From a virus (taxonomy: Duplodnaviria > Heunggongvirae > Uroviricota > Caudoviricetes): a DNA stretch of 45,586 nt. The notes below the pieces were generated by a model. That model saw only the letters and a program-made list of their open reading frames with translations. It was not told the origin of the DNA and made no database searches. The stretch covers positions 1-45,586 of IMG/VR virus record IMGVR_UViG_2713896785_000028; one strand, given 5' to 3'. Made by a program: the position numbers and the translations under genes. Position 1 is the first letter of the stretch; every line of letters begins with the position of its first letter. Positions 6,242-45,586 of this stretch are shown one piece after another.

Positions 6242-6342
6242 TGTTTTTTAACCTCAACTCAGATTAAAATTCGTTTTGTTCAGTGAATGATCTTGCCGGA
6301 TACACACTGTTCATAGCCTGCGCCATACGCAGGCTATTTCTT

Positions 6343-6618
6343 TCAGATTTCACCGTTTAATTTCATTGCAATCAGAGTTGCCAGAAATCCGGTTTTTTTT
6401 TCTGCGGGCAGATTCTTTCCGATGTGAACCAGGCACATTTTTGTGACACCTTCATCAAGTGTTTTTACGTTGCCTGATGGACCGTCGATATCAACCACAG
6501 TGAATGGGGTTTCTTTATTTTCTGTTTTAATCACGTAGCCAATACGCTTTCCTTCCAGATTAACCTCGTGAACAATGTCATCGGTAGTTACAACAGTGGC
6601 TTCATAATTGGTAATCAT
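6343..6618 (-). CDS. racC: RacC-like small protein
   Basis: 91 aa from the internal ATG preceded by AAGGAGAAAAAC; position immediately upstream of recE as in Rac. Confidence 0.65.
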   Translation of the reverse strand: MITNYEATVVTTDDIVHEVNLEGKRIGYVIKTENKETPFTVVDIDGPSGNVKTLDEGVTKMCLVHIGKNLPAEKKTGFLATLIAMKLNGEI

Positions 6619-6692
6619 GTTTTTCTCCTTAATTAAGGTTGAGTGAATCCCTGCCATTGCTGGCATAAATTCAGTTTCGAATAGTCAGTTAA

Positions 6693-6869
6693 TTAAAGTT
6701 CGTGTGCCATCTGGTCTTTTTCGGCACATATTTCACTACAATATTTTTTCATTTCCGTCGTTGGGATAACTCCACGCATGAAATGAAGTGGTTTTGTAAT
6801 GCTTTTGCTTTTTTCAACTTCTTTATTGCAAAGGTGGTAAGCACATTTTATTTTCTTAGTCATCACCAT
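6693..6869 (-). CDS. ydaE: YdaE-like small Cys-rich protein
   Basis: Hand-translated 58-aa ORF below the track cutoff ([18 protein letters not shown]...[16 protein letters not shown]); coordinates approximate. Confidence 0.45.
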
Positions 6870-7084
6870 GACTCCGCCTTTACAGGTAAACCATCACGAC
6901 CGAGGAAGACTTTAATCATGCAGTCAGTAATGCATGTTTTTGTGGTCAGGTTACGAATATAAAGTTTTCGCTTTTTAATATTGTTTGCCGAGGCAATATA
7001 TGTCCGGCCTTCATGAAGAACATAATCGCCAGGAGTCACACACTGACGTGGTATTTCATCAGTTCCGAAGTGATGTGCAATCAT
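6863..7084 (-). CDS. kilR: KilR-like cell-division (FtsZ) inhibitor
   Basis: 73 aa from the internal ATG ([32 protein letters not shown]...), GGAGA RBS; matches the size and recalled sequence of Rac KilR. Confidence 0.7.
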
Positions 7085-7495
7085 AATTATCTCCATTTTT
7101 ACAAATGAACTTTGTTGATGCGGTGCCTGGTGCCTCCAGGTGACGTTAACCAGTTAACAATTAACGCCGGATAATCCACCCATAACACTGATGCTTTTAA
7201 CTGTTCCGCGTGCGCTTAGCCGCATTCACCGCATCACAAAATTCACTTTAAAAAGGGGCGGACATCAGCCGAACTTCAAGAAAAAACTGATGCCGCCAAG
7301 ACTACACACAGCAATGTCGTTATTTACAACCGGAGGCGCACTCCCACCATTTAAATTTAACAGACAAAACCGACTCTTTATGGATATCGGAAATGCGCCT
7401 TCGTGTTGTGCCCGGTTTTATTTCACCACCTCCGGGCTTTGGTGGTTTCTGCTATACCCCTACAGCGAGAATATTGAATTAATCCAAATAATGGA

Positions 7496-8030: not shown

Positions 8031-8495
8031 CTATTTCTTCATGCGTTTCTGAGCTGCCAGCATATTTTCAAACGCTTCTTTGTAGAGTTCATTCTGGCCT
8101 TTAAGCCTTTCGATTAGTTTTGCTTTTTCTGATTCGGGGAGGATATCAAAAAGATCCAGTAAATCAGCTTGTTGCTTGTTAACCATCCGCCACCCTTCGC
8201 CTTCGAAACTTTCGTCATAAGTTCCAGAGGAACGGACGTAATTCATCAGATCAGCTAAATCAGGCCTCAAGTCTTCAGGCTTAACTCTTAGCAATACTGC
8301 GAATTTTAATGCCGCATCAGTGTTAAGTGGAGCCTTTCCGTTGAGATAGTGGCTAACCGTAGATTGCGTCTCAAAGCCCATTAGCTCGGCAGCAAGCTCC
8401 TGAGTCAATTTGAGCTCTCTTTTTTTTGCATCCCAGATTCCGCGTAGACGCTGCGTAGCTTCTGGCGATGCGATTTCTTCGCGTTTTCTTCTCAT
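8031..8495 (-). CDS. racR: Prophage repressor, XRE/CI-like HTH (RacR-like)
   Basis: 154 aa; HTH segment LTQELAAELMGFETQSTVSHYLNGK; divergently arranged with a Cro-like gene across a roughly 100-bp AT-rich intergenic region. Confidence 0.75.
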   Translation of the reverse strand: MRRKREEIASPEATQRLRGIWDAKKRELKLTQELAAELMGFETQSTVSHYLNGKAPLNTDAALKFAVLLRVKPEDLRPDLADLMNYVRSSGTYDESFEGEGWRMVNKQQADLLDLFDILPESEKAKLIERLKGQNELYKEAFENMLAAQKRMKK

Positions 8496-10987: not shown

Positions 10988-11016
10988 TTACAATATATGA
11001 CTTGTCAAAGTATAAT
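10988..11016 (+). promoter_or_regulatory. Putative sigma70 promoter of the ATPase-protease cassette
   Basis: TTACAA, 17-bp spacer, perfect TATAAT, ending about 10 nt before the ATG at 11027. Confidence 0.4.
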
Positions 11017-11026
11017 GAGAGATTGC

Positions 11027-12130
11027 ATGAAGATTAACCATGAGGATTTAATTGATCTTATAAAGGCATCACTGGATGCGAATTACAGCGAAGTTCGTAG
11101 TGTTAGTAATCGCATTGTTCGCGCAATTAGCGCTCAGGATGCTGACTTAGCAAAGCAAATTAAGTCTATCATCCGTAAAAAAGGGGTACCATTACGTAGC
11201 TCTGGTTATACGGACAGTTTGCCCTTAGATCCGAAATCAAGGATGCCTTTAGTGGAAGAAGTCGAATGGCCTGCAACGCCTTTATTTCTTTCTGATGAAT
11301 CACAGCATATTTTTCATGCTTTTATTCAGAATGTTATCCATCAGAATGAACTTATAGAGAATGGAATTCCAGGTAAATTGAATTTACTTCTTTCTGGTCC
11401 GCCAGGAACAGGTAAGACATTAGTCGCTGGTCATATCGCATCCAAATTAAACAAACCGCTCTATGTTGTTCGGCTTGACTCTGTTATTTCTTCTCTGTTA
11501 GGTGATACAGCGAAGAACCTAAGACAGATTTTTGACTTCGTCCCGACAAAAGATGGTGTGTTATTTCTTGATGAAGTAGATGCGGTTGCTAAGCTTCGTG
11601 ATGACAATCAGGAAGTTGGAGAGTTAAAAAGAGTTGTTAACACATTAATCCAAGGACTGGATTCTCTTGATGATTCTGCTATTGTCATTGCTGCAACTAA
11701 TCATTCGAAGCTATTGGATCCAGCAATTTGGAGACGTTTCCCATATAAAATTAGCTTTGGTTTGCCTGGACAAGATGTCAGATGTGCTATGTGGGAACAT
11801 TTTTTATTTAGAGATGATACGGATTCATTTCTAAGTAAAATGTTATCTATCATATCAACTGGGCTAACAGGTGCTGATATTGAAAATATCAGTTTATCTG
11901 CAAGAAGGCATAGTGTTTTATCTGGCAATGGACTGGATATACCATCTGTTGTTTATGCTATATTGAATAGCGTTGCAGATAGTACAGCAATTCCTTTTGG
12001 TAAGGATATAAATTCGAGTGTTAAGAAAAATTTAGCGAAGGAATTATCTAAGTTTAAATTATCACAGGCAGATATCGGTAGACTTTTAAATGTGAGCAGG
12101 CAAACTATATCAGGTTATTTCAAGGAATAA
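11027..12130 (+). CDS. AAA+ ATPase (IetA-like candidate defence ATPase)
   Basis: 367 aa from the ATG downstream of the predicted promoter (track ORF starts at 10997); Walker A LLLSGPPGTGKT, Walker B VLFLDEVD, sensor-1 IAATNH, Arg-finger region DPAIWRRF; HTH-like C-terminus (LSQADIGRLLNVSRQTISGY); visibly AT-rich. Confidence 0.8.
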   Translation: MKINHEDLIDLIKASLDANYSEVRSVSNRIVRAISAQDADLAKQIKSIIRKKGVPLRSSGYTDSLPLDPKSRMPLVEEVEWPATPLFLSDESQHIFHAFIQNVIHQNELIENGIPGKLNLLLSGPPGTGKTLVAGHIASKLNKPLYVVRLDSVISSLLGDTAKNLRQIFDFVPTKDGVLFLDEVDAVAKLRDDNQEVGELKRVVNTLIQGLDSLDDSAIVIAATNHSKLLDPAIWRRFPYKISFGLPGQDVRCAMWEHFLFRDDTDSFLSKMLSIISTGLTGADIENISLSARRHSVLSGNGLDIPSVVYAILNSVADSTAIPFGKDINSSVKKNLAKELSKFKLSQADIGRLLNVSRQTISGYFKE

Positions 12131-12132
12131 TT

Positions 12133-14400
12133 ATGGTCAGTGAAAATAAAGCTAAAATTTTAAACCCAATAATTACTTTATTGAAACCACCAACGCCAGA
12201 GGCGATTCCTGTTGGAGGGAAAAGTCGTAAAAATATTGTTGGTTCACGGTTGAAACAACAGCGTGAAGTTTTATCCTCAGAGATAGATTCCATATTAAGA
12301 ACAGAAGGTGAAATAGTTAAACATCGTGGTAAGTATCATATAGTAACAAGTATGTTTGAGGACTCATATGCACCATCGTTTATACCAGATTCATTATTCT
12401 GTCCCAGTGTTGAATGTAAGATAGTTGCACCAGCATACAATGGATATTTAATTGAGGTCAATAGCAATGCTTTATTGAAGTTGAAAAATAAAATTAATAA
12501 TGCAAAAGCTATTACTGATCTTGTGGATATTTCAAGGGTTAGAAGTGTTAGTCTTTTTGATTCATCTTGTACATTGCGAAATAGTAGCCTTGATTCGCTC
12601 TGGAATACAGTTAAGGCTTTGAATACATTTCAATTTAATATGTGGCTTATGCCTTTTTTTGATGAGCTTTCTAGAGAGTCTGTAGTTTCAACTTTTTTAA
12701 ATTTTTTAAATGATGGTATCATCGCTTTTGGTTATTCAGATTTTGACATAAAAACTATAAATCAAGATGCTGCTGTTGGCGGGGATAATATAGTCATAGT
12801 TCCACCGTTACTTATTGAAGCGATAAAAAAGTATCGTAAATCAGGTCAAGCATCCGTTACCGTCACTGTAGAGACTAAAGATAGTTTAAACAGGATACTG
12901 AATAGCAGTGCTGTGTATCGTATAGATCCTGTATCACCGCTAAACGTAACAGATACTCCTCCTGGTAATGGGGCTGAACCTGTTCCACCAATATTGGGGG
13001 ATAAGAAAATGCCAACTGTAGTTGTAATTGATGGTGGGTGTAATGCGAAATCATATTCAAATTTAAATATATATAAACTAAATCCGCTAATTCCAGATCA
13101 TGATGCAGATTGTAAACATGGTAATAAAGTTGTATCGTTGTTATGTCACGGTTATGCTTGGAATAATAATTTAAACTTACCTAAATTGCAATGTAGCTAT
13201 ATAAGTGCACAGGCTATTGCGAAAAGGGGAGTGTTGAAACAACCAACTCCGGATCAATTTTTAAATTATTTAAGAATGGTTGCTGACAAAACGTCATCTA
13301 TCGCCAAGGTCTGGAATCTTTCGTTTAATGAAGACGCTCCTCATTATAACTGTAATGAGATAAGTTATCTGGGACATAAAATCAGTTTGTTGGCTCGAGA
13401 ATTTGGTATTCTGCCTGTAATATCTATCGGTAATGTTTCAAAGAACGAAAAACAAAAAAATCTTTGTCCGCCCGCAGATTGTGAGTCAGGAATTACAGTA
13501 AGTGGGAGAACGGCCAATCATGAAGGAATGCCTTCAGATGGCTGTCCTTTAAGTCGGAAAGGCCCTGCTCCTGCAGGAATGAAAAAACCTGAGTTATCAT
13601 GGTTTTCTCGAGTTAGGGTGATAGGTGGAACAGTAGATATCGGAACAAGTTTTAGTGCTCCATTAGTTTCATCTATTGCTGCTCATACCTTTTCGAATAT
13701 TAAAAATGCCACTCCTGATTTGGTTAGGGCATTATTGATTAACAGGAGTGAGTTGCTTTCTCATGATGATGCATTAGGATGGGGGACTCCTTGGGATGGC
13801 GATTTACTGCCATGGTATTGTAAAGATGGCAGTGTCACATTAACGTGGATATCTAAGTTAAAGGCTGGGGCTGCTTATTATTGGAACGATCTTCCATTAC
13901 CTCCAGAGATGTTAGTTAATGGTAAATTAGTTGGTGAGATATCTCTGACAGCTATACTAAAACCTAAGGTTTCTGAGTTCGGAAGTGAGAACTATTTTTC
14001 GACAAGGCTCCAATGTTCGTTACAGGCAATAAAAGAAATTAACGGAACGCTAAAAACAGAAAGCCTTCTTGGGTCAATGAAAGAATCTTCTGTTGATGAG
14101 CGTAAAGCTAGAAATGAACTTTCTAAATGGAGCCCTATTCGCCATCATGCAGAGTCGTTTAAGAGAAAAGATATAACAGGGTGTAAAATTCGGCTTTATG
14201 CTAGGATATATGCTAGAGATTTGTATCAGTATGGGTTAAATAACCAACGGGAGCTTGAAGAGCAAGAGGTTTCCTTTGTTTTAACTTTTAAAAGTGTATC
14301 AGGATCGTCCTCAATATATACATCAATGGTTCAGCAACTTGGTGTTTATGTTGAAAGTGCTGTTATAGATAATCACATTAACATAGATGTTAATAAGTGA
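12133..14400 (+). CDS. Subtilisin-like S8 serine peptidase (IetS-like)
   Basis: 755 aa, 2 nt after the ATPase stop; catalytic-triad motifs in S8 order: Asp (TVVVIDGG), His (HGNKVVS), Ser (GTSFSAPLVSS); about 280-aa N-terminal and 240-aa C-terminal regions of unknown function; AT-rich. Confidence 0.8.
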   Translation: MVSENKAKILNPIITLLKPPTPEAIPVGGKSRKNIVGSRLKQQREVLSSEIDSILRTEGEIVKHRGKYHIVTSMFEDSYAPSFIPDSLFCPSVECKIVAPAYNGYLIEVNSNALLKLKNKINNAKAITDLVDISRVRSVSLFDSSCTLRNSSLDSLWNTVKALNTFQFNMWLMPFFDELSRESVVSTFLNFLNDGIIAFGYSDFDIKTINQDAAVGGDNIVIVPPLLIEAIKKYRKSGQASVTVTVETKDSLNRILNSSAVYRIDPVSPLNVTDTPPGNGAEPVPPILGDKKMPTVVVIDGGCNAKSYSNLNIYKLNPLIPDHDADCKHGNKVVSLLCHGYAWNNNLNLPKLQCSYISAQAIAKRGVLKQPTPDQFLNYLRMVADKTSSIAKVWNLSFNEDAPHYNCNEISYLGHKISLLAREFGILPVISIGNVSKNEKQKNLCPPADCESGITVSGRTANHEGMPSDGCPLSRKGPAPAGMKKPELSWFSRVRVIGGTVDIGTSFSAPLVSSIAAHTFSNIKNATPDLVRALLINRSELLSHDDALGWGTPWDGDLLPWYCKDGSVTLTWISKLKAGAAYYWNDLPLPPEMLVNGKLVGEISLTAILKPKVSEFGSENYFSTRLQCSLQAIKEINGTLKTESLLGSMKESSVDERKARNELSKWSPIRHHAESFKRKDITGCKIRLYARIYARDLYQYGLNNQRELEEQEVSFVLTFKSVSGSSSIYTSMVQQLGVYVESAVIDNHINIDVNK

Positions 14401-37510: not shown

Positions 37511-38223
37511 TGTCAAACGCTCAAAAATTACCGTTTCTCCGAACACTGTCGGAGATGATGACCAGTTCTGGTAACCAGCAAGCCGAGCTTAAAGGCCGCG
37601 AATTGCCCTGCCATGTTGTCGATATCTGCGGGCAAATAGTGACAGTTCAGTTTGATATGCTGCCGGAGGGGATCAACTTCCCGCAGATAACAATCCCTGT
37701 CGCCACATTCCCGTATATCCGTTACCCGATACAGCCGGGCGATCGAGGAGTAACAATTGCCGCTGATGTATCACTGCGCGGTGTGTCCGGATTGGGAACC
37801 GGTATGGCAACGCTTTCTTACTCGATGTCGCTCACTCCCCTGTTTTTCGTGCCATTGGCAAACAAGGAGTGGTCCGACGAAGATCCGCAAAAAATCGTTT
37901 TGTACGGTCCGGATGGCGCGATCCTCAAAACAGAGGACGGCAGTAGCTCGGTAATGGTGGCTCTGGAAGAAATCAGGCAAAAGTCGAAAGCTGTTTACCT
38001 CGAGGCCGAAGATATTTTCCTGAACGGGAAAATTCACCTCAATGGACCGATCGTCCAGGACAAAGCCCAGATGAAGGATACAACCGCTTCGCTGATTGGT
38101 CCTCTTAATGTCGAGATGGATGCAGTTATCAACGGCGTGAGCGTCAGCGGCCACAGCCACGATGTGACTGGTGTTCAAAGCGGCAGCAGCACGATTACGT
38201 CGAAGAAACCAAATCCTGGTTAA
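37510..38223 (+). CDS. Baseplate spike protein (gpV-like)
   Basis: 237 aa; C-terminal HxH motif (VSGHSHDVTG) as found at the tip of gpV/gp5-type spikes. Confidence 0.5.
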   Translation: MSNAQKLPFLRTLSEMMTSSGNQQAELKGRELPCHVVDICGQIVTVQFDMLPEGINFPQITIPVATFPYIRYPIQPGDRGVTIAADVSLRGVSGLGTGMATLSYSMSLTPLFFVPLANKEWSDEDPQKIVLYGPDGAILKTEDGSSSVMVALEEIRQKSKAVYLEAEDIFLNGKIHLNGPIVQDKAQMKDTTASLIGPLNVEMDAVINGVSVSGHSHDVTGVQSGSSTITSKKPNPG

Positions 38224-38261
38224 TACCGGTTCATTTCACTTTAAATTCTGACCATAAAACG

Positions 38262-38300
38262 AAAACCCCGACTGTTGGCCCAGTCGGGGTTTTCTGTTTC
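38262..38300 (+). terminator. Rho-independent terminator after the spike gene
   Basis: CCCCGACTG-TTGGCC-CAGTCGGGG hairpin followed by TTTTCTGTTTC. Confidence 0.5.
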
Positions 38301-38320
38301 TCACCTTGAATACGCAAGGG

Positions 38321-38509
38321 ATGATTACGTATGTTTGGAGGTCTTCCGTGATTAATTTTAGCGGAGGAGACTGGATTGTGAAAGCCTTAAAATTAGTGGC
38401 AAAAAGCAATACCTTACGACGCATGTATTACACCGCTGCACTCGTAGCTTTAGCATTTGCCTTTTCACCAGTACTGACAGAGTTAGTTAAAGTGATGGGG
38501 GCACGATGA
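38321..38509 (+). CDS. Hypothetical small membrane protein
   Basis: 62 aa from an internal ATG of track ORF 38306..38509; hydrophobic segment YYTAALVALAFAFSPVL. Confidence 0.3.
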   Translation: MITYVWRSSVINFSGGDWIVKALKLVAKSNTLRRMYYTAALVALAFAFSPVLTELVKVMGAR

Positions 38510-38853
38510 GAACATGGGGCCGCGTCACCGACGCGAACGGCAACAAAAAATGGGTTGCAGTAGAATCTGACGCCAACGGTGATTTCTCCTACGGCTGGCT
38601 GACGACGCTCATTCAGACGTTAAAGCTGGGATTGGGGGAGTCGCCGTTTTACGCGAATTACGGTATTCCTGCACAGCAGTGCATCGTGCAGCAGATTTAC
38701 CCAGACTACTATGTGAACATGGTTCAGCAACAGTTTGCTGGGTATTTTGCATCACTGGCAATTTCAAAGGTAGATGGAGCAGATAACCCCACCTATAACA
38801 TCGATGTTGTGTTTTTTAATGGGACCAGTTACCGGACGCAGGTGCCGGTATGA
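38506..38853 (+). CDS. Baseplate protein (putative)
   Basis: 115 aa; size and position comparable to gpW/gp25-class baseplate proteins, with no motif-level support. Confidence 0.35.
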   Translation: MRTWGRVTDANGNKKWVAVESDANGDFSYGWLTTLIQTLKLGLGESPFYANYGIPAQQCIVQQIYPDYYVNMVQQQFAGYFASLAISKVDGADNPTYNIDVVFFNGTSYRTQVPV

Positions 38854-39002
38854 ATCACAGTTTTATGATAAAACTTTTACCTTGGTTTGGAGTGCTGTAG
38901 AGAGATATTTTAGGGGGGCGAGTAATTTTCTAAGCTGGAGCATATTGACATATATTATTTCGGATTTGCAAAATACATATTGTTACCATGGAGGAGACAA
39001 GC

Positions 39003-40163
39003 ATGGAAAATTTTGCAAATAAGTTAAAAATACACACAGAGCATGTTGCAAAAATGGGGGTGTTTTGTACAACTGAAGAAACGACAAAACAAGCACTCAT
39101 TATGCCATTACTAGATATTCTTGGTTTTACTCCGTATGATCCAAGAAAAGTCAAAGCTGAGTATAGTGCTGACTTCCCCGGGGTTAAGGCTAATGAACGG
39201 GTTGATTACGCTTTATTTTGTCATGATGTTCCTGTGATGTTCATTGAGGCGAAATCGTTTTCAGAACAAATTGATAATCACTGCCCACAGCTATCAAGAT
39301 ATTTTAATTCAACACCGGAAGTTACTATATCAGCCATTACAAATGGTGTTGAATGGCGTTTTTTTACGGATTTGAAACAAAAAAACATAATGGATTCAAC
39401 GCCGTTTTTAAAAATAAGAATGGATTCTCTAACTCACTCCGATATTACACAATTATTTCGTTTTCGTTATGATAAATTCAAACCAGAGGCTTTACGGACA
39501 CTGGCTGAAGAAAGTGTTTATTTGAATTCATTTACTAAAACAATCAGTTCTAGTCTTCGTGAAGTTGATCTGGAGTTTGTTCGATATGTTGCTAGTCGTT
39601 CAAATATTGAGAGACAACTTAATCAGAGATTTCTTGAGTTCGTGACTCCATTAGTTAAACAGGCCGTTGAGCGCGCTGTTAGCGCAATGGTGGTTTCCGG
39701 GCTATCTACACAACCGGTAGAGCAAACTAAAGAAAATGATGCAACGGATACACAAGTTAATAACGCCATTGTTGATGAAGAAAACCCCAACATAATAACC
39801 ACAGCCAAAGAATTGGAGCTATTTGAAAGGGTAAAACAAATCATACAAACAGAAGATAATATAGAATATAAAGATACTGAGTCATATTTTGGTGTGCTAT
39901 TGAATGGTAAAACTAATAGATGGCTGTTAAGATTTTATGATAAAAAATCTTCATTTATAACTTTACCTATTTCGCTTAGTGAAGTTCAGTTGAATGAAAT
40001 AAGACGAGCTCGACTTGATACGGATGGTAAAAGGATACATATAACTAATCCGGAAGATATACTTCGCATATCTGGTTTGATTCTGGATTCATACGAGTAT
40101 GTTAAAAATGATGATAATTTCCGCCGAGGGTCCAGAGTGAGCAGTTTAGAAGAGGTTGAATAA
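39003..40163 (+). CDS. Restriction-endonuclease-like PD-(D/E)xK nuclease with HsdR-N-type N-terminal domain, moron of unknown role
   Basis: 386 aa from the ATG with a GGAGGA RBS; N-terminal motifs ALIMPLLDILGF...RVDYALF...VMFIEAKS...ITNGVEWRFF match the type I restriction HsdR N-terminal nuclease pattern; AT-rich; own TTGACA promoter element upstream and a terminator downstream. Confidence 0.7.
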   Translation: MENFANKLKIHTEHVAKMGVFCTTEETTKQALIMPLLDILGFTPYDPRKVKAEYSADFPGVKANERVDYALFCHDVPVMFIEAKSFSEQIDNHCPQLSRYFNSTPEVTISAITNGVEWRFFTDLKQKNIMDSTPFLKIRMDSLTHSDITQLFRFRYDKFKPEALRTLAEESVYLNSFTKTISSSLREVDLEFVRYVASRSNIERQLNQRFLEFVTPLVKQAVERAVSAMVVSGLSTQPVEQTKENDATDTQVNNAIVDEENPNIITTAKELELFERVKQIIQTEDNIEYKDTESYFGVLLNGKTNRWLLRFYDKKSSFITLPISLSEVQLNEIRRARLDTDGKRIHITNPEDILRISGLILDSYEYVKNDDNFRRGSRVSSLEEVE

Positions 40164-40165
40164 GT

Positions 40166-40192
40166 AAAAAACCCGCGAAAGCGGGTTTTTTA
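40166..40192 (+). terminator. Rho-independent terminator after the nuclease moron
   Basis: AAAAAACCCGC-GAAA-GCGGGTTTTTT, a perfect hairpin with T-run. Confidence 0.65.
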
Positions 40193-40203
40193 ATGGAGTA
40201 AAT

Positions 40204-41430
40204 ATGTCAGAAATACCAATTACTATGACCAGTGCGGGGGCGCAGCCTACGCCACCCAATGATTTGCTTGCAAATCTTATCATCAGAGTTGCTGAAAAAG
40301 TACCTGGATATACAGCCAACCTTCCGGCGGGGCTTATTACTGACCTTGCCAGCACGGCAGTCGGGGCGCTGGCATTAATAGACCAGGCGCGGGTGGACCT
40401 TATTAACTCCGTAAGCCCATACGGCGCAAATATTCCGTTACTGATGCAACTCGGAAACATTTATGGAGCACAGAAGGGATTAAGTACAAATACGGCGGTA
40501 TACGTGGTATTTGAGGCGTTGCCGGGGTTTGGTATCCCTAAAGGATTTGTTGTCGGTGATGGCAACTACCAGTATGCAGTTTCCCGCGATACGGTGGTGC
40601 CGGAAAGTGGGCAGACTGAACCAGTCTACTGTGTGGCCACAACGTCAGGCTCATGGGCTGTACCGGAAGGGACTGTGACGCAGGTTATTACCTCAGTACC
40701 AAAAGACCAGCCTGTAAAATGCACGAACCTTACCGCAGGGATGCCAGGTCAGGAGGCGCAGACGTGGGCATCTTACCGCGCCGAAGTCATGGAGTCCGGT
40801 ATGTTTGGTGTGCAGGGAACACCGGATTGCTATAAAGCGATGCTCAAATCAGTAAGCGGTGTGCGAGAAAACCTGATTTCTTTCCGGCAGTCGTCGCTGG
40901 GGAAATGGGTTGCGGTTGTTGGTGGCGGTGATCCGTATGATGTGGCTTATGCGATTTACAAATCTGTACCGGATATTTCGAAACTGACCAACGATGTAAG
41001 CAATCCATCCGGTGCGGCAGTGGAAAAACGCACGGTTTCAATAACCGTTTCGCCGGACGTTTATCAGGTGCCGTTCGTTATCCCGTCATCACAAAACGTC
41101 ATGGTGCTAATCACCTGGAACACGGTGTCTGATGATTATGTTGATCCGGCGGGTATTGCTATGGCTGTGCAGCAAAACGTTGCTGATTACATCAATTCAA
41201 TTGAAGTCGGACACCCGATAAATCTTCTGCGTATCCAGGATATTTTTACCAGTTCTGTCAGGTTGCTGGTTGATGCGACGTTGATCTCAACAATCAGTGT
41301 GAGCATTGGCATTAATGGTCATATTGTTCTTCCGGCAAAAGACACAAGCCTGGTTTATGGCGATACCTATTCCTATTTTTCGACAGTGGCATCACAGGTT
41401 CAAGTTAACAAGTATGCAATATCTGACTGA
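40204..41430 (+). CDS. Baseplate J-like protein
   Basis: 408 aa, followed by a gpI-like gene and the tail fibre, as in Mu/P2-type baseplate clusters. Confidence 0.55.
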   Translation: MSEIPITMTSAGAQPTPPNDLLANLIIRVAEKVPGYTANLPAGLITDLASTAVGALALIDQARVDLINSVSPYGANIPLLMQLGNIYGAQKGLSTNTAVYVVFEALPGFGIPKGFVVGDGNYQYAVSRDTVVPESGQTEPVYCVATTSGSWAVPEGTVTQVITSVPKDQPVKCTNLTAGMPGQEAQTWASYRAEVMESGMFGVQGTPDCYKAMLKSVSGVRENLISFRQSSLGKWVAVVGGGDPYDVAYAIYKSVPDISKLTNDVSNPSGAAVEKRTVSITVSPDVYQVPFVIPSSQNVMVLITWNTVSDDYVDPAGIAMAVQQNVADYINSIEVGHPINLLRIQDIFTSSVRLLVDATLISTISVSIGINGHIVLPAKDTSLVYGDTYSYFSTVASQVQVNKYAISD

Positions 41431-44161: not shown

Positions 44162-45586
44162 ATGTCTGTAGTGATATCAGGTGCGCTGATTGATGGCGCA
44201 GGTATCTCCATGTCCGGATGCCACATTATTCTGAAATCCCGGGTAAACACCTCAGAGGTGGTGATGCGCACAGTTGCCGACGTGGTGACAGGAAACTGTG
44301 GCGAGTACTGTTTTGAGGCGCAGACCGGAAAATATTGCGTATATCTGAAACAGGGCTGGCGCGACGAGTACTGTGTTGGCGATATTGCTGTATACGACGA
44401 CTCAAAGCCCGGCACGCTGAACGATTTTCTGACTGCCCTGGATGAAGGCGACCTCAAACCCGACGTGGTGAAACGATTTGAGGAAATGGTGGCGCAGGCG
44501 CAGCAGGGTGCCGAAACCGCAACAGAAAGCGAACGACAGGCAGGGCAACATGCAGATGCTGCCGCCCGGGCAAAAGAAGAGGTAAAAAAACTGGCGGAAG
44601 GTGTTCAGCAGAACGCCGACGCTGTTGCGGAGGGTAAACAACAGGCCGAAAATCTGGCCTCGCAGGTTGAGAATGCCGCCGCAGAGGTAAAAAAGGACGC
44701 TGAAGCTGCTAAACAGGCCGCATCCGGTGCAGAGCAGGCCAGAGCAGATATTGATACTGCGTTATCTGCGACACTGAAAACGGCGAATCGCCTGTCAGAG
44801 CTGGCTGATGAAGGTGAAGAGGCTCAGCAGGAATCCCGTGATAATCTTGGACTGAAAAGCGCTGCCACAATGACGCCACAGAGCGACATTCGTGACCGGA
44901 CTGAAGGTCGTCTGGCGACACCTGGCGCATTTGGTTTTGGGCATATTTTTTTGCCCGCAGAGCGTATCCGTTTTAACACAGAGGATGATTTTCTGGCATG
45001 GGTAAGGAATGCGACGCCGGGTGAATATTTTGTTGAGGGTGGCAGTAAAATCATATCCGGAGGTGTGTTGTTTAACGGGGTGGTCAGAATCCGGTGGGTT
45101 GAGGCACACAATAATCCACCGGAACCGCGATATACATCAAAGGCCATTATTTTCTACGGTATCAATGGCGATGTTTATTACAGCCGCTACTGGACAACAG
45201 GTAATGGTTATCTGACTGGCTGGGAAAATCTGAAAATTACCTCACAGGACATTATCTCTCTTTTGTCCGGTATTGCTCCCGGTACCACGGACGGCTGGTA
45301 CGGTGCAGGCAGTCTTGTACTGGCGGCTTATAACGGTAAGGGAGATGCAGACACCGACCGCCGGATAAAGCGCGGTTACAGTTATCCGGGGTCACGCCTG
45401 AGTGCGGTTGAATTTATGTGTTACGGCACGACCGGTAGCAGGGTTGGATATAACGGCAGCGTTTCCGTATATGTGCGGGGTTCTGGTGGTGGTATGCCGG
45501 GGTCATATCGTGCACTGTCAGGCGATGAACTCGGGTCTGCCGGGTCAGCCAGTGTCATGATTGGTTTGTTCATACGTATTGCGTAG
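44162..45586 (+). CDS. stf: Side tail fibre protein (Stf-like N-terminal domain)
   Basis: 474 aa; N-terminus ISGALIDGAGISMSGCHIILKSRVNTSEVV...PGTLNDFL resembles the conserved N-terminal domain of lambdoid side tail fibres; Ala/Glu/Gln-rich coiled-coil segment; stop codon is the last triplet of the window. Confidence 0.6.
   Translation: MSVVISGALIDGAGISMSGCHIILKSRVNTSEVVMRTVADVVTGNCGEYCFEAQTGKYCVYLKQGWRDEYCVGDIAVYDDSKPGTLNDFLTALDEGDLKPDVVKRFEEMVAQAQQGAETATESERQAGQHADAAARAKEEVKKLAEGVQQNADAVAEGKQQAENLASQVENAAAEVKKDAEAAKQAASGAEQARADIDTALSATLKTANRLSELADEGEEAQQESRDNLGLKSAATMTPQSDIRDRTEGRLATPGAFGFGHIFLPAERIRFNTEDDFLAWVRNATPGEYFVEGGSKIISGGVLFNGVVRIRWVEAHNNPPEPRYTSKAIIFYGINGDVYYSRYWTTGNGYLTGWENLKITSQDIISLLSGIAPGTTDGWYGAGSLVLAAYNGKGDADTDRRIKRGYSYPGSRLSAVEFMCYGTTGSRVGYNGSVSVYVRGSGGGMPGSYRALSGDELGSAGSASVMIGLFIRIA

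Follow-up and report, generated by a model that had tools for sequence, protein, structure and literature searches.

The stretch of DNA considered here, referred to as the window, comprises the 45,586 nucleotides of IMG/VR record IMGVR_UViG_2713896785_000028 and represents a Rac-like lambdoid prophage of Escherichia coli, as judged from its near-identity to annotated chromosomes such as that of strain JNU, where the prophage lies beside ompN/uspF. An integrase gene at the left end is followed by recET, a RacR-type immunity region, replication, nin-like and lysis genes, with the head and tail genes on the right. The present study concerns a solitary gene in the tail cluster that encodes a 386-residue protein with an N-terminal nuclease domain of the HsdR-N type, and the possibility that it is a defence gene expressed by the prophage. 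The features of the locus, in coordinates of the window, are as follows.

38506-38853 (+): upstream flank, a 115-amino acid (aa) tail-cluster gene that is conserved irrespective of the cargo in about 90 E. coli genomes (nucleotide identity 94-100%)
38854-40192 (+): variable cargo cassette (promoter-like site, gene and terminator), delimited by homology break points and GC (guanine plus cytosine) content
38945-38974 (+): sigma-70 promoter-like site, TTGACA-18 nt-CAAAAT, a consensus match only
38990-38995 (+): Shine-Dalgarno sequence GGAGGA, 7 nt before the ATG, read from the sequence
39003-40163 (+): coding sequence, 386 aa, from the list of open reading frames (RefSeq WP_000426902.1; PHROG 4225)
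39003-39404 (+): HsdR-N-type (RecB-like) PD-(D/E)xK nuclease domain, aa 1-134, from Pfam
39204-39206, 39246-39248 and 39252-39254 (+): codons of catalytic residues D68, E82 and K84, to which Q96xxxY100 is added
39405-39707 (+): basic helical middle region, aa 135-235, isoelectric point (pI) 9.5, from AlphaFold2 secondary structure (predicted local distance difference test score, pLDDT, 43-87 per 10-residue block)
39708-39785 (+): hypervariable acidic linker, aa 236-261, pI 4.05, predicted to be disordered (AlphaFold2, sequence identity)
39786-40127 (+): C-terminal alpha/beta domain, aa 262-375, with a YdhG/YjbR/MotA-CTD-like fold according to modelling; a putative recognition module
40165-40192 (+): intrinsic-terminator-like hairpin AAAAAACCCGC-GAAA-GCGGGTTTTTT, 2 bases past the stop codon, from RNA folding
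40204-41430 (+): downstream flank, the baseplate J/gp47 gene (Pfam Baseplate_J, 1.4e-8; RefSeq annotation)

The coding sequence is the sole open reading frame of the interval 38945-40192, and its start at 39003 is also that given by RefSeq in an identical E. coli locus (WP_000426902.1); an in-frame ATG at 38988, which would give a protein of 391 residues, is an unlikely alternative start that overlaps the Shine-Dalgarno sequence. The TTGACA element, ribosome-binding site and terminator that the earlier note, made from the sequence alone, had assigned to the gene are all present, the promoter in the form of a consensus match. TTGACA occupies 38945-38950 and CAAAAT 38969-38974, and with a score of 10/12 this site is the top match on the + strand in 38000-40800; the scanned region, in which the DNA is AT-rich, holds 12 promoter-like matches as against 5.5 ± 2.4 expected. 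The hairpin behind the gene has the core CCCGC-GAAA-GCGGG between runs of A6 and T6 and a folding free energy of −17.4 kcal/mol (z = −4.8), a stability equalled by 0 of 200 shuffled sequences, although it was absent from the output of a simple terminator scan. Its symmetry means that it could potentially be used in both directions.

The cassette has a GC content of 0.357 and a GC content at third codon positions (GC3) of 0.26, compared with a GC content of 0.47-0.48 in the flanking tail genes and a GC3 of 0.44-0.59 in neighbouring genes, which bears out the claim that the gene is more AT-rich than its surroundings. By GC content the nuclease gene falls within the lowest 2.8% of equal-length windows, and the single other stretch of similar AT-richness in the window is another cargo region. 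The promoter-like site, coding sequence and terminator thus make up a one-gene moron, which has an intrinsic terminator of its own, a base composition that deviates from its neighbours in both GC and GC3, and a position between conserved genes from which it is missing in relatives, where other cargo is held and the junction is never empty.

The tail-cluster part is present in 93 of 5,426 complete E. coli genomes, in 25 of which the nuclease gene occupies the same place with 98.5-100% identity. The other listed genomes that keep both flanks carry an opposite-strand Ant/AntB antirepressor gene, together with LprI-family (lysozyme-inhibitor) or hypothetical genes; the LprI cargo terminates in its own, different hairpin. 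Phage vB_Apl-pPE4 (PP818812.1) has the same Ant-type arrangement, and the slot with such cargo corresponds to 5338-6986 in the relative L002 and to 6338-7393 in this phage (L004). In comparisons with relatives, including vB_Apl-pPE4, homology breaks off directly past the stop codon of the 115-aa gene (38853), for which there was no match in Pfam or PADLOC, and is regained at about 40192, where the ribosome-binding site of the baseplate J gene lies. When the two flanks were joined as a query, there was no E. coli genome in which they lie within about 930 nt of one another, so that the slot is never empty in about 90 genomes. The locus is therefore an always-filled cargo-exchange slot rather than the site of a one-off insertion. 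The proposal that a moron had been inserted into the tail cluster holds for the moron anatomy and for the presence of other cargo in relatives, but the picture of an insertion into a formerly continuous junction has to be replaced by one of cargo exchange; that the gene might be a conserved structural component is contradicted by the other cargo that related tail clusters carry at this position. The morons of HK97/HK022-type lambdoid phages have the same anatomy (own promoter-like site, terminator, late-gene position and deviant composition); the difference from these classic morons is that in none of the relatives examined do the genes flanking the slot lie side by side.

An allele with 78% identity occurs in the Stx2 prophage of E. 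coli JNEC-KY177, where it forms a separate moron on the opposite strand (L003, 8002-9159) between the Q antiterminator and DNA methyltransferase genes, just upstream of stx2 and about 2.3 kb from stx2A. The nuclease family is thus also cargo of Shiga-toxin phages. It should also be noted that phage PP818812.1, although deposited as "Actinobacillus phage vB_Apl-pPE4", has about 94.5% nucleotide identity to the prophage tail cluster, which suggests that it is an E. coli-type phage or that its host has been mis-assigned.

The N-terminal domain has a nuclease fold with intact catalytic motifs. HSDR_N (5e-14) and HSDR_N_2 (2e-9) match residues 25-128, both above their gathering scores, and no further family was found in a whole-protein Pfam scan. 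All of the motifs from which the HsdR-N pattern had previously been read are in place, PLLDILGF at residues 35-42, VDYALF at 67-72, FIEAKS at 80-85 and NGVEWRFF at 114-121, and none of the catalytic residues of the HsdR/RecB type (D68, E82-x-K84 and Q96-x-x-x-Y100) is missing. Across 27 members of the family, with identities down to 26%, D68, K84 and Y100 never vary, and conservation of E82 and Q96 reaches at least 90%. A family profile aligns the catalytic residues to those of the HsdR fragment 3h1t (E 0.02); a search of the PDB with the single protein sequence returned just chance matches to hemagglutinin (E 0.16-1.1). The gene is thus well described as one for a stand-alone HsdR-N-type PD-(D/E)xK nuclease.

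The remaining 250 or so residues had been reported to contain no recognisable motif. This is correct insofar as there is no significant Pfam match to the C-terminal part, whether the whole protein or 37 C-terminal domains alone are searched (scattered noise at E ≤5), and no viral model was matched at E ≤ 0.001 when the fold of the C-terminal domain was used as a query, but modelling nevertheless resolves the region into the helical region, disordered linker and alpha/beta domain listed above. Matches of the family profile to chemoreceptor sensors in the helical region (E about 0.006) were judged to be noise from helical composition. The helical region terminates in a motif, MVVSGL, that is conserved in the family alignment, and the AlphaFold2 pLDDT is below 50 across aa 228-254. 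Members of the close family share on average 84% pairwise identity in the nuclease domain, 81% in the helical region, 63% in the C-terminal domain and 25% in the linker; the value for the linker drops to 12% in the broad family. A sharp conservation boundary is therefore seen at aa 229-261 (39687-39785), where the MVVSGL motif gives way to the hypervariable acidic linker, and this boundary might mark an autoinhibitory or DNA-mimicking segment. From the models, the basic helices and the YjbR/MotA-CTD-like domain might plausibly bind DNA or a ligand, and the acidic linker might restrain the enzyme. The protein has no hydrophobic segment, the maximum 19-residue hydropathy being 1.08.

In RefSeq the protein is named "type I restriction endonuclease". 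No helicase family was detected in Pfam at E up to 1, the NCBIfam HsdR equivalog model scores 19 bits against a cut-off of 729, and, in agreement with the earlier note, no hsdM/hsdS, methyltransferase or specificity genes are present in the cassette or its flanks. Because the helicase motor, the methyltransferase and the specificity gene are all absent, the RefSeq name is wrong as a family assignment and represents a transfer at the level of a domain. The resemblance to HsdR (EcoR124I, PDB 2w00; fragment 3h1t) is limited to the N-terminal nuclease fold and the D..ExK..QxxxY motifs: HsdR, with roughly 800-1100 residues as compared with only 386, also has an SF2 translocase, a C-terminal domain that contacts HsdM, and hsdM/hsdS partners. 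Similarly, the single-chain Type IIG/IIL restriction-modification enzymes BpuSI (3s1s) and DrdV (7lo5) incorporate methyltransferase and target-recognition domains in the chain, neither of which occurs in the protein considered here. Also comparable are the stand-alone PD-(D/E)XK defence proteins and the Type IV (modification-dependent) restriction enzymes, which are likewise solitary nucleases lacking a methyltransferase, having an extra non-catalytic domain and being carried by mobile elements. It is the region after the nuclease domain that defines the family. PHROG 4225, "endonuclease", is a full-length match (4.5e-149; residues 1-370 on profile positions 1-357 of 357), and an exhaustive search with aa 135-386 gave 316 clusters at 50% identity. 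Nearly all of the proteins matched are 350-400 aa in length and align from about residue 133 on; in every longer protein tested the region is preceded by HSDR_N, and one of these proteins also contains a TerD domain.

A word-indexed search identified 1356 homologues, the best 120 of which, at 62-99% identity, are mostly from Enterobacterales, with Gilliamella in addition, and a scan of one genome per species found the family in 185 species of Gamma- and Betaproteobacteria. Homologues that are 30-37% identical and align over 77% or more of the length occur in phages of Clostridium, Enterococcus, Lacticaseibacillus, Porphyromonas, Fusobacterium and Pseudomonas, and the family is present in temperate phages of Firmicutes, Bacteroidota, Actinobacteria and Fusobacteria. 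Its typical position is directly behind, and co-oriented with, the prophage repressor gene, which is the position of rexAB in lambda; a gene that shares its transcript with a prophage repressor gene is expressed in the lysogen. Among 79 species-level loci with a callable upstream neighbour, a CI/XRE-type repressor gene lies directly upstream on the same strand in 24, and in 16 of these the gap is 45 nt or less, commonly 10 nt, leaving no space for a separate promoter. Pfam detects HTH_3 in 22 and Peptidase_S24 in 18 of the upstream neighbours, the remainder of which include Dit-like tail proteins, NinG and Q. The downstream neighbours are heterogeneous (antirepressors, the lambda N peptide in 2 loci, components of toxin-antitoxin systems and housekeeping genes), and there is no methyltransferase among 72 of them. 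The pair of repressor and nuclease genes is seen in a Citrobacter koseri prophage remnant, Providencia lambdoid prophages and a Salmonella Mu-like prophage, and likewise in Klebsiella phage KpF5 and Corynebacterium phage Juicebox; in Streptococcus pneumoniae phage IPP25 the order is repressor, hypothetical gene, family nuclease gene and integrase. Many homologues thus share the niche of rexAB, including in two cases the N that follows, but lambda RexAB is a two-protein, membrane-depolarising system that has no relationship in sequence or fold to the family nuclease, which is a single, soluble protein. Also, in the window the nuclease gene is located in the tail cluster, unlike rexAB, which is beside the repressor gene.

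The reading that we favour is one of defence or exclusion, in which the gene encodes a nuclease that, as a single protein, keeps out superinfecting phages or other foreign DNA; its probability is estimated as roughly 0.55. Expression in the lysogen, the function in defence and the way in which foreign DNA would be distinguished from that of the host are inferred. The protein would be a Mg2+-dependent DNA endonuclease of the HsdR-N/RecB type that acts in the absence of a translocase, methyltransferase or specificity subunit, and, being made in the lysogen, would shield the lysogen and hence the prophage, either through cleavage of foreign DNA as it enters or through abortive infection, as a nuclease that is triggered by phage. 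The N-terminal domain would be the effector, and the faster-evolving YjbR/MotA-CTD-like domain together with the basic helices would recognise the target or trigger, with the acidic linker perhaps holding the enzyme in check. The host chromosome could be spared through recognition of modified DNA, as in Type IV enzymes, through activation by a phage component, or through specificity for forms of DNA that are peculiar to entering or replicating phage.

The strongest argument for action during lysogeny is the recurrence of the family behind the repressor gene across phyla. It lends plausibility, though not proof, to the earlier note's suggestion of expression from the prophage and of a role in defence or exclusion. 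A role in defence is suggested by the combination of an intact nuclease, a second domain that evolves faster, the lack of a conserved partner and the movement of the gene between phage modules. The fall in identity from 84% in the nuclease domain to 63% in the C-terminal domain and 25% in the linker has the appearance of an arms race, and the heterogeneous downstream neighbours, together with a C-terminal region that is always fused to HSDR_N, would fit a single-gene system. The AT-rich composition, which resembles that of the IetAS defence cargo of the same prophage, also points in this direction. No domain is found more often than PD-(D/E)XK in the newly validated defence systems of E. coli, 13 of 31 of which have it, with varied extra domains (PMC13092281). 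Conceptual analogues are HepS, encoded by the prophage Gifsy-1 (PMC13043305), and SNIPE of E. coli (PMC13190303), which are recently described single-protein nuclease defences that have to distinguish foreign from host nucleic acid without a methyltransferase; however, HepS, a HEPN nuclease, acts on tRNA in response to tail-tip proteins and SNIPE is bound to the membrane, whereas the nuclease described here is a soluble protein of the HsdR-N type with an unrelated extra domain. The Gifsy-1 genes STM14_3218-3220 were considered as relatives and proved to be unrelated, encoding a ParA-like ATPase and hypothetical proteins. For "prophage Lp2 protein 6", which is detectably expressed (PMC3845652), homology to the family could not be confirmed and the protein has been given no weight.

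Several observations weigh against a role in defence or against expression in the lysogen. The repressor gene of this prophage, at 8031-8495 on the minus strand, is not beside the nuclease gene, and the immunity-operon argument is therefore transferred to this gene, by analogy, from its homologues. With the gene away from the repressor, its expression would rest on its own promoter-like site, which is only a consensus match of a kind that AT-rich DNA inflates. H-NS often silences AT-rich foreign genes in E. coli and could damp expression here. In Gilliamella and Edwardsiella, family genes are found as solitary chromosomal genes outside recognisable prophages. PADLOC-DB v2.0.0 contains 0 families that match the nuclease at E up to 1, under conditions in which IetA and IetS of the same window, as positive controls, match at 5e-100 and 2e-65, respectively. 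A full-text literature search on the family found no functional, expression or phage-challenge study, although prior validation is still possible. Among 24 low-scoring transcription units with remote homology to known defence proteins, 6 of which encode PD-(D/E)XK nucleases, only 1 gave protection (PMC13092281), and a PD-(D/E)XK domain alone is therefore insufficient to predict defence. In the part of the DefensePredictor supplement tables that was searched, neither of two accessions sought, WP_000426902 and WP_032188582, which stand for the present protein and its Stx-phage allele, was found, and the entries there that are named for HsdR-N are proteins of 825-971 aa (PMC13092281).

A bolder form of the defence reading is possible but on balance doubtful. 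According to this, the family would constitute a hitherto unrecognised, pan-bacterial class of methyltransferase-independent immunity located in the repressor operon of temperate phages, a nuclease counterpart of Rex that is gated by a YjbR/MotA-CTD-like "double-wing" sensor and an autoinhibitory linker and that discriminates in a manner unlike restriction-modification, CRISPR or known Type IV systems.

Other roles have also to be weighed. It is unlikely that the nuclease serves the DNA metabolism of the phage itself, in recombination, repair, the handling of replication intermediates, the degradation of host DNA or the control of induction. The D..ExK..QxxxY set does occur in recombination and repair nucleases, "endonuclease" is the plain name chosen by phage annotators, and in Klebsiella phage KpF5 and some prophages the gene is near those for RdgC and RecT; however, it is dispensable, in that most closely related tail clusters lack it and have unrelated cargo instead, its positions vary widely (tail cluster, beside Q, behind the repressor), and the prophage already has RecE/RecT. 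Also, co-transcription with the repressor, at the commonest position, would turn the gene on in lysogeny, when lytic DNA metabolism is off.

The same contextual evidence for expression in the lysogen would apply equally if the main role of the nuclease were not directed against phages, for example as an addiction toxin, in the exclusion of plasmids or transforming DNA, or in interference with co-resident prophages or satellites. Toxin-antitoxin genes are neighbours in several loci (RES, HicB, PIN, HigB and Fic/PhdYeFM), and, with no evident antitoxin or methyltransferase, the activity needs some form of restraint. We nevertheless consider such a role improbable: there is no conserved partner antitoxin, the sequence indicates no target, and most of the prophage genes studied so far at the rexAB position act against phages.

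It is very improbable that the cassette is a selfish, free-standing endonuclease of the homing type, which would spread in co-infection or recombination by cutting cognate phage genomes lacking it and confer no benefit on the lysogen. A lone nuclease gene that has expression signals of its own, is flanked on both sides by conserved structural genes of essential function, is foreign in composition and varies in presence among phages that are otherwise about 95% identical does resemble the free-standing homing endonuclease genes of T-even phages. However, the cognate empty target site is absent, no E. coli genome having contiguous flanks and the alternatives being other cargo, and the contexts of the family are non-homologous, with no common flanking target gene. 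The dominant repressor-operon context implies expression in the lysogen rather than in lytic co-infection, and identities of 52-87% across families and orders of Gamma- and Betaproteobacteria, together with a conserved extra domain, would be unusual for a rapidly decaying homing gene. That the gene is a decayed, functionless 5' fragment of hsdR, as its RefSeq name and the recognition by sequence of only the HsdR N-terminal domain might suggest, is effectively refuted by the conservation of the family, with its fixed and widespread 350-400-aa architecture (1356 matches, 316 clusters, a full-length PHROG), strongly conserved and intact catalytic residues, no helicase remnants past the nuclease domain, and tight expression signals of its own.

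The gene is a prophage-borne, single-gene nuclease and a candidate for defence, with a distinctive combination of domains and an unusually consistent genomic niche. If the defence reading is correct, the family would represent a compact single-gene system of about 1.3 kb that is kept in the immunity operon by temperate phages of at least five phyla, and a widespread addition to prophage-mediated immunity that is absent from PADLOC v2 and misnamed in RefSeq. Its recognition would correct an annotation error that inflates the counts of orphan type I restriction genes, and would raise the question of how a lone HsdR-type nuclease spares the host chromosome. If the reading is wrong, the protein would be an ordinary accessory nuclease of prophages. 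Between the 115-aa tail gene and the gene for baseplate J, Rac-like prophages have a clean natural site of cargo exchange that could be mined for further accessory genes.

Other features of the window are also worth recording. Upstream of the 115-aa gene, the baseplate operon has a 282-nt gap (38224-38505) containing a hairpin with a perfect 14-bp stem (38261-38294) that is terminator-like on both strands and is followed by an unannotated 67-aa open reading frame (38306-38509) with a hydrophobic C-terminal stretch. The tail-fibre open reading frame (44162-45586, + strand), which runs past the end of the window, has a long Ala/Glu/Gln-rich segment that is probably a coiled-coil; in strain JNU only a 102-nt N-terminal remnant is annotated at this point, indicating that the tail-fibre end is another variable region. 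The IetAS system (Gao Iet) is complete at 10997-14400 (+ strand), just past an IstB/DnaC-like replication gene, with a GC content of 0.32-0.41, and consists of two genes.

10997-12130 (+): IetA, AAA ATPase, 377 aa (PADLOC)
12133-14400 (+): IetS, subtilase, 755 aa (PADLOC)

Strain JNU, which is identical to the window around the nuclease gene, has different genes at the site of IetAS, which is thus a second variable cargo slot.

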